Part shown: in pieces, positions 932-7,415 of the stretch
How the letters are laid out: the number at the start of each line of letters is the position of its first letter
How positions within the stretch are numbered: position 1 is the stretch's first letter
Made by a program: the position numbers and the translations under genes
Notes under the pieces: model-generated
What the model saw: the letters and a program-made list of their open reading frames with translations, nothing else
What the model was told of the DNA's origin: nothing
Database searches by the model: none
IMG/VR virus record: IMGVR_UViG_2706794698_000011
Source: a virus
Taxonomy: Duplodnaviria > Heunggongvirae > Uroviricota > Caudoviricetes
Length of the DNA: 7,415 bases
Reading direction: 5' to 3' (one strand)

Positions 932-999
932 TGCAGCGGGTGCTTGAGGCTATCTGTCTCAGGCATGAACACCAAAAGGCAGATAGAGAAAAGCCCCAG

Positions 1000-1059
1000 T
1001 TAACATTACGCGTCCGGCAAGACGCTTAACATTAATCTGAGGCTCAATCTATGAACGGC
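1000..1059 (-). ncRNA. sok: Candidate Sok-like antisense RNA (approximate ends)
   Basis: Minus-strand promoter inside mok: -35 TTGCCT (complement of 1089-1094), 17-nt spacer, -10 TAACCT (complement of 1066-1071); transcript would cover the mok start and SD; hairpin 1010-1025 on the antisense strand. Ends inferred, not measured. Confidence 0.4.
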
Positions 1060-1263
1060 AAATCTAGGTTAGCCTCTTACGTGCCGAAAGGCAAGGAGAA
1101 GCAGGCTATGAAGCAGCAAAAGGCGATGTTAATCGCCCTGATCGTCATCTGTTTAACCGTCATAGTGACGGCACTGGTAACGAGGAAAGACCTCTGCGAG
1201 GTACGAATTCGAACCGGCCAGACGGAGGTCGCTGTCTTCACAGCTTACGAACCTGAGGAGTAA
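1051..1263 (+). CDS. mok: mok-like overlapping reading frame (modulator of killing)
   Basis: 70-codon ORF whose last 51 codons are hok in the same frame; GAGG at 1039-1042; architecture matches the hok/mok/sok loci. Confidence 0.6.
   Translation: MNGKSRLASYVPKGKEKQAMKQQKAMLIALIVICLTVIVTALVTRKDLCEVRIRTGQTEVAVFTAYEPEE
1108..1263 (+). CDS. hok: Hok/Gef-family type I toxin (51 aa)
   Basis: MKQQKAMLIALIVICLTVIVTALVTRKDLCEVRIRTGQTEVAVFTAYEPEE carries the Hok signature (TM helix, TRK.LCE.R.R.G..EVA.F.AYE); AGGAG at 1094-1098. Confidence 0.9.
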   Translation: MKQQKAMLIALIVICLTVIVTALVTRKDLCEVRIRTGQTEVAVFTAYEPEE

Positions 1264-4059: not shown

Positions 4060-4107
4060 CGTTATAACGATGGGCGTTTTATGCCTGACGTTAGAAGAGT
4101 TTCTACA

Positions 4108-4131
4108 ACCCGCCGCCGAGCGGGTTTTTTA
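4108..4131 (+). terminator. Intrinsic terminator (tR'-like) downstream of the late promoter
   Basis: Stem ACCCGC/GCGGGT (4108-4113 / 4120-4125) with a 6-nt loop, followed by TTTTTT. Confidence 0.75.
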
Positions 4132-4250
4132 TGACTGAAATCGCGTCAGTACAGTAAACGCGCTGGTGGCGGTGAATACCTGTCTTTCAGCTTGCTGGCT
4201 TTTTCGACAAGAGTTATTGGTGTGTCACGTTAACCGGAAAAGGAAAAGAC

Positions 4251-5700: not shown

Positions 5701-5776
5701 CGGCCCTTTAGCTCAGTGGTGAGAGCGAGCGACTCATAATCGCCAGGTCGCTGGTTCAAATCCAGCAAGGGCCACC
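5701..5776 (+). tRNA. tRNA with CAU anticodon, closest by eye to tRNA-Ile2 (lysidine) of the ileX type; tRNA-Met not excluded
   Basis: Full cloverleaf can be drawn: acceptor GGCCCTT/AAGGGCC, D-arm GCTC...GAGC, anticodon loop CTCATAA, T-arm GCTGG-TTCAAAT-CCAGC, 3' ACCA. Confidence 0.85.
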
Positions 5777-5783
5777 ATCACAT

Positions 5784-5818: not shown

Positions 5819-6148
5819 NNNNNNNNNNNNNNNNNNNNNNNNNNNNNNNNNNNNNNNNNNNNNNNNNNNNNNNNNNNNNNNNNNNNNNNNNNNNNNNNNN
5901 NNNNNNNNNNNNNNNNNNNNNNNNNNNNNNNNNNNNNNNNNNNNNNNNNNNNNNNNNNNNNNNNNNNNNNNNNNNNNNNNNNNNNNNNNNNNNNNNNNNN
6001 NNNNNNNNNNNNNNNNNNNNNNNNNNNNNNNNNNNNNNNNNNNNNNNNNNNNNNNNNNNNNNNNNNNNTTTTAAATACTTCACAATTCAGGCGGTTGACT
6101 GTTGTCTGGTTTGCGGGGAGTTTGTTAAAAGAAACTGGCATGGTGAAT

Positions 6149-6292
6149 CCCCCTGTGCGGAGGGGCAATCAGCGAGTAGGTATATGGGATAATCGCGGAT
6201 TCAGGTGCTGGTACTGAATTCACCGGGAGGCACCCGGCATCATGCAATGGCACATAGCGCCACTCTCCAGCCCTCTCCGGAGGGGCTTTTCT
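6149..6292 (+). other. GC-rich hairpin-dense non-coding stretch (candidate structured RNA or regulatory leader)
   Basis: Four local hairpins (6150-6165, 6197-6221, 6223-6237, 6270-6286), the last followed by CTTTTCT; no ORF over 30 codons on either strand. Confidence 0.3.
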
Positions 6293-6681
6293 GTGCCGGA
6301 TACATCACAGTTTCTGGAACCTTAGGTACTACAGTATCAGTCAGGGTGCTATATTTTCAGATGTGATGAAAGCCTGTCAGCAGGCAGGGCGTATCGGAAA
6401 TGACCCAGTAGAGAAAACNNNNNNNNNNNNNNNNNNNNNNNNNNNNNNNNNNNNNNNNNNNNNNNNNNNNNNNNNNNNNNNNNNNNNNNNNNNNNNNNNN
6501 NNNNNNNNNNNNNNNNNNNNNNNNNNNNNNNNNNNNNNNNNNNNNNNNNNNNNNNNNNNNNNNNNNNNNNNNNNNNNNNNNNNNNNNNNNNNNNNNNNNN
6601 NNNNNNNNNNNNNNNNNNNNNNNNNNNNNNNNNNNNNNNNNNNNNNNNNNNNNNNNNNNNNNNNNNNNNNNNNNNNNNNNN

Positions 6682-6981
6682 TTGCAGAGTGCAACGGTTA
6701 TTAAAGCATTCATTCAATACGTTATCTGTATTTGTAGGGCATTCCTGGCTATTTTTGATTGAATTCCAGAATGTTTTATTGAATGGTACTACGTTGTAAA
6801 TGGTTACAGGTAGCACTTTGTTATTGAGCATGATGCCTGTGTGAGTCAGTGTAAATATACTTTCAGGAGGTAAGAAAGCATCCGATTGATACCAGATTAT
6901 TAATTTTATTTTACTCCATATGACTGAAAAAGATATTCCGCATGATGGCTGGATAACTGTATCAATCACAATCCACTTCAT
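6682..6981 (-). CDS. AT-rich hypothetical protein (at least 100 aa visible; 3' part enters mask 6419-6681)
   Basis: ATG at 6981 with AAGGAAAC SD (complement of 6985-6992); about 35 percent GC versus over 50 percent around it; AT-biased codons (ATA, AAA, TTA, AAT); uninterrupted 100-codon ORF in AT-rich DNA. Confidence 0.6.
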
Positions 6982-7243: not shown

Positions 7244-7399
7244 GATGTTGTCAGGGCGGCGCCGCCGTCAGATCTTGCGGAAAAGCTGACACATAAACTG
7301 AAAGAGGGCTGGCAGCCGTTTGGTAGTCCGGTGGCCATAACCCCTTATACCCTGAGGTGTACTGGCAATAGCGGACACTACCATTTGTTCTTTTTTTAA
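7244..7399 (+). CDS. 3' end of a hypothetical protein (5' part inside mask 6993-7242)
   Basis: Open frame from the mask edge to TAA 7397-7399 with enteric codon usage (...KLKEGWQPFGSPVAITPYTLRCTGNSGHYHLFFF); the last 14 codons lie in the inverted repeat. Confidence 0.5.
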   Translation, partial: DVVRAAPPSDLAEKLTHKLKEGWQPFGSPVAITPYTLRCTGNSGHYHLFFF

Positions 7400-7415
7400 G
7401 CAGCCATCTGATGAT
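7353..7415. repeat. Right copy of 63-bp perfect inverted repeat (partner 36-98)
   Basis: Exact reverse-complement match to 36-98; contains the last 14 codons and stop of the + strand ORF ending at 7399. Confidence 0.9.

Follow-up and report, generated by a model that had tools for sequence, protein, structure and literature searches.

Positions 6138 to ~6292 (+ strand) of a 7,415-nt stretch of prophage DNA, hereafter the window, carry a member of the STnc100 family of small RNAs (sRNAs). The element, ~155 nt long, is probably a self-contained promoter-RNA-terminator moron whose product is Hfq-associated and acts in trans in the lysogen. It has the P1, P2, P4, P5, and pseudoknot architecture of the family, a -10-like element at the family distance, and a terminator. 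The locus is already known, being a catalogued prophage sRNA gene that is real but ordinary, and not a new riboregulator. For the window, the result is the annotation of an unlabelled intergenic stretch, and the features of that stretch are collected in Table 1.

Table 1. Features of the STnc100 element and its upstream region, in window coordinates.
Feature	Position	Strand	Basis or remark
Conserved upstream block TCACAATTCAG	6079-6089	+	Alignment of upstream regions; 5' edge of the E. coli-type module
Overlapping -35-like hexamers, TTGACT (6095-6100) and TTGTCT (6102-6107)	6095-6107	+	Sequence
Extended -10-like element, TGtTAAAAG	6123-6131	+	Family position of TAnnnT; TG precedes TAAAAG
STnc100 structured core, 108 nt	6138-6245	+	Rfam match; aligned PasD2 RNA-seq start; MFE fold
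P1, 5' strand, GCAUGGUG	6138-6145	+	Pairs with 6238-6245
P2 hairpin, 6149-6151/6162-6164 and 6152-6153/6159-6160, 6161 bulged, loop UGUGC	6149-6164	+	Covariation
Pseudoknot, 5' strand, AUCAGCG	6168-6174	+	Pairs with P4 loop 6206-6212 (UGCUGGU)
Variable insert, length copy-dependent, ending in conserved junction GC	6175-6196	+	Alignments A1 and A2
P4 hairpin, 8 bp, loop 6205-6213	6197-6221	+	Covariation; fold
P5 hairpin, CCGGG-AGGCA-CCCGG	6223-6237	+	Columns invariant in 139 copies
P1, 3' strand, CAUCAUGC	6238-6245	+	Covariation alignment
Poorly conserved 23-nt linker, AAUGGCACAUAGCGCCACUCUCC	6246-6268	+	Family variation; candidate seed by position
Intrinsic terminator, hairpin 6269-6287 then UUUUCUG; putative Hfq-binding 3' end	6269-6294	+	Terminator scan

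Identity and spread of the element

A scan against all Rfam families returned STnc100 (RF02076, "Gammaproteobacterial sRNA STnc100") as the sole match at the element, at 6109-6298 (+), with 122.5 bits (gathering score, 47) and an E value of 2.9e-27. The match covers the whole model (positions 1-206 of 206) and is confined to the + strand, and a relaxed Rfam scan of 6069-6418 gave nothing credible beyond STnc100. An initial annotation, made from the sequence before any database search, had offered a small RNA as one of several options for this stretch and had proposed an Rfam scan; that option proved right, as the element is a full-length member of the family. The hairpins it had described are all present, three of them local (6149-6164, 6197-6221, and 6223-6237) and the fourth a terminator stem (6269-6287) followed by TTTTCT. 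The characteristic sequences of the family are found at 6142-6152 (GGUGAAUCCCC) and 6221-6239 (CACCGGGAGGCACCCGGCA) together with helices P1, P2, P4, and P5, and the 3' intrinsic terminator is present, though weakened by a 1-nt deletion. Window and relatives also share the location typical of the family, a lambdoid prophage moron site between Q and the lysis genes.

Compared with the Rfam family, nothing essential differs in the window copy, the departures being a G.U pair in P1 and the 1-nt deletion in the terminator stem. Both are also seen against the closest copy examined, from E. coli 2D (L001), which differs from the window copy at two places, each within a helix: a C-to-T change at 6240 converts a P1 G-C pair to G.U (6143-6240), and the window copy has lost one nucleotide in the C-run of the terminator 5' arm. 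qPCR primers published for STnc_100 in STEC (PMC12370729) have exact matches in the window, at 6139-6158 and 6212-6231. Of 5426 complete E. coli genomes in RefSeq, 2718 hold a match to the 349 visible bases around the element, some in as many as 12 places, and identity is 98.6-99.4% for the closest matches. In EDL933, 11 annotated STnc100 copies have RNA-seq reads, one of them Northern-positive (PMC5331693), and an RpoD ChIP-exo signal has been reported for Salmonella copies (PMC10794520). The papers cited here give no mechanism for STnc100 itself.

Several further observations concern the annotation of these copies. In E. coli 2D, the copy closest to that of the window is followed ~280 nt downstream by a second, different one, which precedes a SASA esterase gene (the two copies are at L001 7041-7231 and 7509-7718). 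Positions 6419-6681 of the window are masked, and some of such a copy, or else a partner sRNA, may lie hidden there. In RefSeq, antisense "hypothetical protein" (pseudo)genes run across STnc100/PasD copies (L001 7060-7185, L003 6948-7073, and L125 2801-3199, all on the - strand), and these are probably annotation artefacts hiding the RNA gene.

A covarying core with a pseudoknot

Relatives were collected with a 19-mer from hairpin P5 as query, which, in species-representative genomes, gave 120 loci. Rfam confirmed those sampled as STnc100, and 139 distinct cores were aligned. Outside Enterobacterales, the 19-mer also matched Streptomyces, Micromonospora, and others, but these matches lacked the 5' motif and were discarded as chance. 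Conservation in the family is concentrated in the ~108-nt core, in which GGUGAAUCCCC and UCACCGGGAGGCACCCGGCA are nearly invariant among the 139 cores, and the 5' leader of the Rfam model, the 3' linker, and the terminator vary in sequence across the family.

When 6138-6294 was folded alone, the MFE structure consisted of P1, P2, P4, P5, and the terminator. Across the 139 copies, the covariation score was 0.364; controls gave 0.161 when shuffled and no more than 0.11 when slid. Folding z-scores against dinucleotide shuffles were -0.24 (6095-6300) and -0.25 (6138-6294); stability alone is thus not evidence here, since the element folds no more stably than its shuffles, and its significance comes from homology (Rfam E 2.9e-27) and covariation rather than from folding energy. 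The check by folding and covariation that the initial annotation had suggested therefore came out in favor of the RNA on covariation and not on stability. The minus strand was also considered as a source of RNA and rejected: its fold has a z-score of -1.9, but it has no Rfam match, terminator, or promoter peak.

Individual helices differ in how they vary. P1 is paired in 90.7% of cells, with compensatory changes at 7 of its 8 pairs (139 copies), and P4 has compensatory changes at all 8 pairs and a local fold of -9.0 kcal/mol (z -2.36). P5 is 99.9% paired without covariation in the same 139 copies. For P2, the bulged register given in Table 1 is 99.0% paired with three compensatory pairs, against 83.5% and one for the Rfam register (A2 columns 23-40, window 6149-6165), and the Rfam register of P2 appears to be shifted by one.

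These patterns bear on two readings that would make the element something other than an RNA gene. One, which we consider very improbable, is that it is a DNA-level boundary sequence promoting homologous moron exchange between lambdoid phages. The element flanks the moron insertion site, and shared homology starts and stops sharply at the module edges in different phages; however, compensatory double changes keep the RNA helices, and do so for one strand only, relatives are transcribed, and exchange may be a side effect of sequence conservation. The recombination site put forward in the initial annotation likewise leaves the helix-preserving changes unexplained. The other reading, that the element encodes a small protein, is scarcely credible. 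It can point to overlapping open reading frames (ORFs) of 40-53 aa, to the PGAP pseudo "hypothetical protein" annotations antisense to relatives, and to ribosome footprints on one EDL933 copy, STnc100_10 (RCV 3.21), which is listed with the motif tatgggata (PMC5331693). The same motif occurs in the window copy at 6182-6190. None of the three overlapping ORFs (40, 42, and 53 aa) has a Pfam match, however, the + strand ORFs run through the terminator, among them that of 53 aa, and neither the indels nor the helix-preserving substitutions among copies follow a codon-like pattern. The earlier view that the stretch holds no credible ORF is upheld.

The P4 loop and the strand before the variable insert also change together, as shown by paired motifs such as CAGC/GCUG, CUGGU/ACCAG, CAGUC/GACUG, ACUGAC/GUCAGU, and GGCAA/UUGCC in different copies. 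Compensatory changes were found in 7 of 7 pseudoknot columns, with 61.8% paired against 52.1% when shuffled, in a MAFFT alignment that is poor in this variable region. Because the region aligns poorly, this column-based signal was of only moderate clarity, and we preferred a per-sequence test, in which the 5' strand of each copy was paired with its own loop or with the loops of other copies. Duplex energy averaged -9.22 kcal/mol with the own loop and -6.42 kcal/mol with other loops (z = -13.8). Among 81 representatives less than 70% identical, the longest helix averaged 6.44 bp against 5.18 bp (z = 9.8), and a helix of at least 6 bp formed in 81% of own-loop pairings compared with 35% of other-loop pairings. 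A pseudoknot in the STnc100 core is thus well supported by covariation. It is absent from the Rfam consensus line and unmentioned in the STnc100 papers cited here, among them a 2026 preprint (10.64898/2026.05.13.724894). Together, the pseudoknot and the refined P2 register appear to be new, as a modest addition to the family model.

Tandem arrays of three to five cores were seen in Pantoea (L049, L080, L089, and L096), Superficieibacter (L077, L046, and L048), and Enterobacter (L083 and L029). Gaps in the Pantoea arrays are as short as 24-44 nt, and some contain neither a -10 nor a terminator; arrays with such promoter-less gaps suggest transcripts containing several cores. The Enterobacter array loci have isrI and tRNA genes nearby. 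Tandem core arrays in these other genera also appear to be new.

Predicted promoter and transcription start, and prophage setting

Among 137 distinct upstream regions, 79 have TAnnnT 15-18 nt upstream of GTGAAT, against ~2-3 per position elsewhere. This peak at a fixed distance places a -10 for transcription to start at P1. At the family -10 position, the window has TAAAAG, without the usual T at the last position. The initial annotation had noted TTGACT, which is indeed present at 6095-6100, and had seen no convincing -10; the second part calls for revision, given the extended -10-like element at 6123-6131. TTGACT lies 25 nt upstream of the TAAAAG hexamer, too far to be its -35; a weaker -10, GAGTTT (6118-6123), is another candidate partner for TTGACT and would make the 5' end ~8 nt longer. 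The overlapping TTGTCT lies 18 nt before the -10-like hexamer, and the motif that contains both, GTTGAC(A/T)GTTG(T/C)CTG, is kept in E. coli-type copies. A promoter-like arrangement, TTGACT-18 nt-TAAAAA, is found for PasD2 of enteropathogenic E. coli (EPEC). The ends of PasD2, as estimated from RNA-seq, are NC_011601 741157-741328. The first is the G of GCATGGTG, which opens P1, and the last falls in the U tract of the terminator; they map to G6138 and ~6292 in the window. By this analogy, the window RNA is predicted to start at or near G6138.

Further upstream, TCACAATTCAG stands ~50-60 nt before the predicted start in E. coli-type copies, whatever the upstream gene, and may be a regulator or UP-like site. 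BLAST homology to the Stx phage copies starts at ~6071-6080, and homology to another locus, L003, stops right after the terminator hairpin. The mobile unit, extending from ~6071-6080 through that hairpin, therefore comprises promoter, RNA, and terminator.

From its gene order, the window is the late regulatory region of a lambdoid prophage. In order, it has hok/sok, the genes for DUF968, RusA, and a Q-type antiterminator, a terminator past Q, and a DNA methylase gene; then come tRNA-Ile(CAT), a masked stretch where relatives have two tRNA-Arg genes, the STnc100 element, an iraM-like gene (-), and the 3' end of a DUF1737 gene. The element lies ~150 nt past the tRNA cluster, on the late strand. 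Elsewhere, what precedes the module is stx2B in the case of Stx2 phages, a DUF3927 gene in that of EPEC, and tRNAs in other cases, so that adjacent tRNAs are not obligatory. The genes 3' of STnc100 vary by locus and include those for SASA esterase, holin, lysozyme, Ivy, and KdgM. In other genera, STnc100 again comes after Q-type antiterminators (PF03589 and PF06530) and precedes either holin/lysozyme genes or morons, Ivy, KdgM, and Ail/Lom among them.

This setting raises the question of whether the element could act in cis within the late (pR') transcript, as the trailer of the tRNA cluster, as an element for processing or stability, or as a terminator or attenuator that responds to Q. Its position on the late strand ~150 nt after the tRNA cluster fits such a role, as does a terminator that Q-modified polymerase would read through. 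We nevertheless regard a cis role as improbable: the module follows stx2B or a DUF3927 gene elsewhere, the -10 is conserved at a fixed distance, the 5' end of PasD2 is at P1, the downstream gene is convergent here, and ARAGORN found only the tRNA at 5702-5777 in the window, with no tRNA-like gene at the element. The same facts tell against two suggestions of the initial annotation. A leader or attenuator is unlikely because the next gene, iraM, is on the minus strand and the downstream genes differ between loci; the tail of a tRNA cluster or of a masked element is unlikely because the module follows stx2B, a DUF3927 gene, or tRNAs in different phages and has its own -10 at a fixed distance. 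An independent sRNA gene remains the preferred reading.

Other features of the window were noted alongside. The AT-rich cargo gene at ~6660-6981 (-) is a homologue of iraM (97% identical DNA is annotated in RefSeq as anti-adapter protein IraM) that gave no Pfam match; in L003, only ~26 nt separate the end of iraM from the STnc100 terminator. At 938-1113 (+) is hok/sok, a type I toxin-antitoxin locus, with an ORF at 1051-1263, an Rfam sok match of 112.4 bits, and hokD annotated there in relatives. A strong intrinsic terminator, AACCCGCCGCCGAGCGGGTT followed by a T run, lies at 4107-4132 (+), ~80 nt past the Q gene. This is the expected place for a tR'-type terminator and a short pR' transcript; a simple scan found no promoter. 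Finally, the ends of the window form a perfect 63-nt inverted repeat (36-98 and 7353-7415). Its right arm, which starts TGAGGTGTACTGGC and matches DNA annotated as IS3-like IS600-family in RefSeq, cuts the DUF1737 gene at 7352/7353. Inverted IS ends thus bracket the 7.25-kb nin-Q-tRNA-STnc100-iraM segment, which could be invertible or composite-transposon-like.

Related RNAs and the proposed function

In eight Sakai prophages, the moron site that lies downstream of pR' has been described as carrying Hfq-bound sRNAs, which form convergent pairs, for example, EcOnc27/AsxR 3' of stx2B (PMC4104026). EcOnc27, which is the same RNA as sRNA103 and overlaps an STnc100 annotation, raised fimZ and espA transcripts when overexpressed (PMC12711010; PMC7873438), and this STnc100 copy downstream of stx2B was Hfq-bound in CRAC (PMC12711010; PMC7873438; PMC4104026). 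At the Stx2 phage locus that we examined (L002), STnc100 scored 207.7 bits and starts 75 nt after stx2B, with AsxR convergent directly downstream. EcOnc27/sRNA103, from EHEC Sp5/933W, resembles the window copy in family and in position relative to Q, tRNAs, and lysis genes, but the two are only ~69-80% identical over the aligned part and have different 3' linkers. They also differ in that EcOnc27 is paired in Stx2 phages with the convergent anti-sRNA AsxR, whereas no AsxR/AgvB-like partner was seen in window positions 6293-6418. AsxR and AgvB (RF02703 and RF02702) had no match in 6069-6418 at E values up to 10, the neighboring 6419-6681 being masked, and the same search recovered AsxR in L002 with 88.1 bits as a positive control. 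AsxR and AgvB share with STnc100 the moron site and the combination of a conserved scaffold with a variable targeting end (PMC4104026), but, at 51-60 nt, they lie on the other strand and have no sequence relationship to it.

The second point of comparison is PasD1 and PasD2 of EPEC E2348/69, which are EcOnc13 homologues. Hfq RIL-seq retrieved both, along with numerous targets in chimeras (PMC8550237), and the preprint already mentioned (10.64898/2026.05.13.724894) proposes that PasD1, PasD2, and STnc100 share an ancestor. Like the window copy, they lie after Q (in their case also after a DUF3927 gene) and before esterase/lysis genes, and they share its overall fold, a 5' end at GCAUGGUG, and a 3' terminator. 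Unlike the window copy, which is a canonical STnc100, they have a degenerate core, with scores (41.4 and 37.7 bits) that fall short of the gathering score. Their seed, UGUGAG, sits in the corresponding linker, directly before the terminator; it is absent from the window linker (6246-6268), which ends in CUCUCC, and the window copy is therefore not PasD-type. In Δhfq RNA-seq, pasD1 and pasD2 levels changed by log2FC +0.55 and -0.18, neither significant. The analogy with PasD is thus indirect, since PasD falls below the Rfam threshold and its transcripts change little in Δhfq.

From these relatives, we propose that the window RNA would be made in the lysogen from its own sigma-70 promoter, with a start at P1, and would bind Hfq through the terminator hairpin and U tail. 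It would then pair in trans with host or prophage mRNAs through the single-stranded linker, with the conserved core as scaffold. The terminator folds with -10.2 kcal/mol, and the U tract of the window copy is short and interrupted (UUUUCU). Against a base-pairing sRNA, the best-conserved part is the structured core and not the putative seed, which is unusual for the type.

That pattern of conservation is the starting point for a different account, in which the pseudoknotted core (6138-6245) would be a functional module that binds a protein or ligand, for example, as a decoy or sponge, with the 3' linker and terminator as accessories. J1/2 and P5 are near-invariant, P1, P2, P4, and the pseudoknot covary across more than 20 enterobacterial genera, and the flanks are not conserved; the Pantoea arrays, with cores 24-44 nt apart and in places no room for a promoter or terminator, resemble multi-site sponge RNAs. 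Hfq binding and base-pairing chimeras are documented in relatives, however, PasD still works as an sRNA with a degenerate core, and a structured 5' domain could merely stabilise the RNA. We therefore treat a binding module as a speculative minority possibility. If true, it would explain the near-invariant J1/2 and P5, the covarying helices and pseudoknot, and the tandem arrays, and the base-pairing 3' tail of EHEC and EPEC would be a lineage-specific add-on. The trans-acting, Hfq-associated sRNA set out above remains the probable role of the window element.

The family matters because copies of it adjoin Shiga toxin genes. In a machine-learning study (PMC12711010), single-nucleotide polymorphisms in the copy linked to stx2 ranked among the top predictors of haemolytic uraemic syndrome. 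Handles for experiments on a very widespread RNA are offered by the pseudoknot, the revised P2 register, the predicted start at P1, and the tandem arrays.
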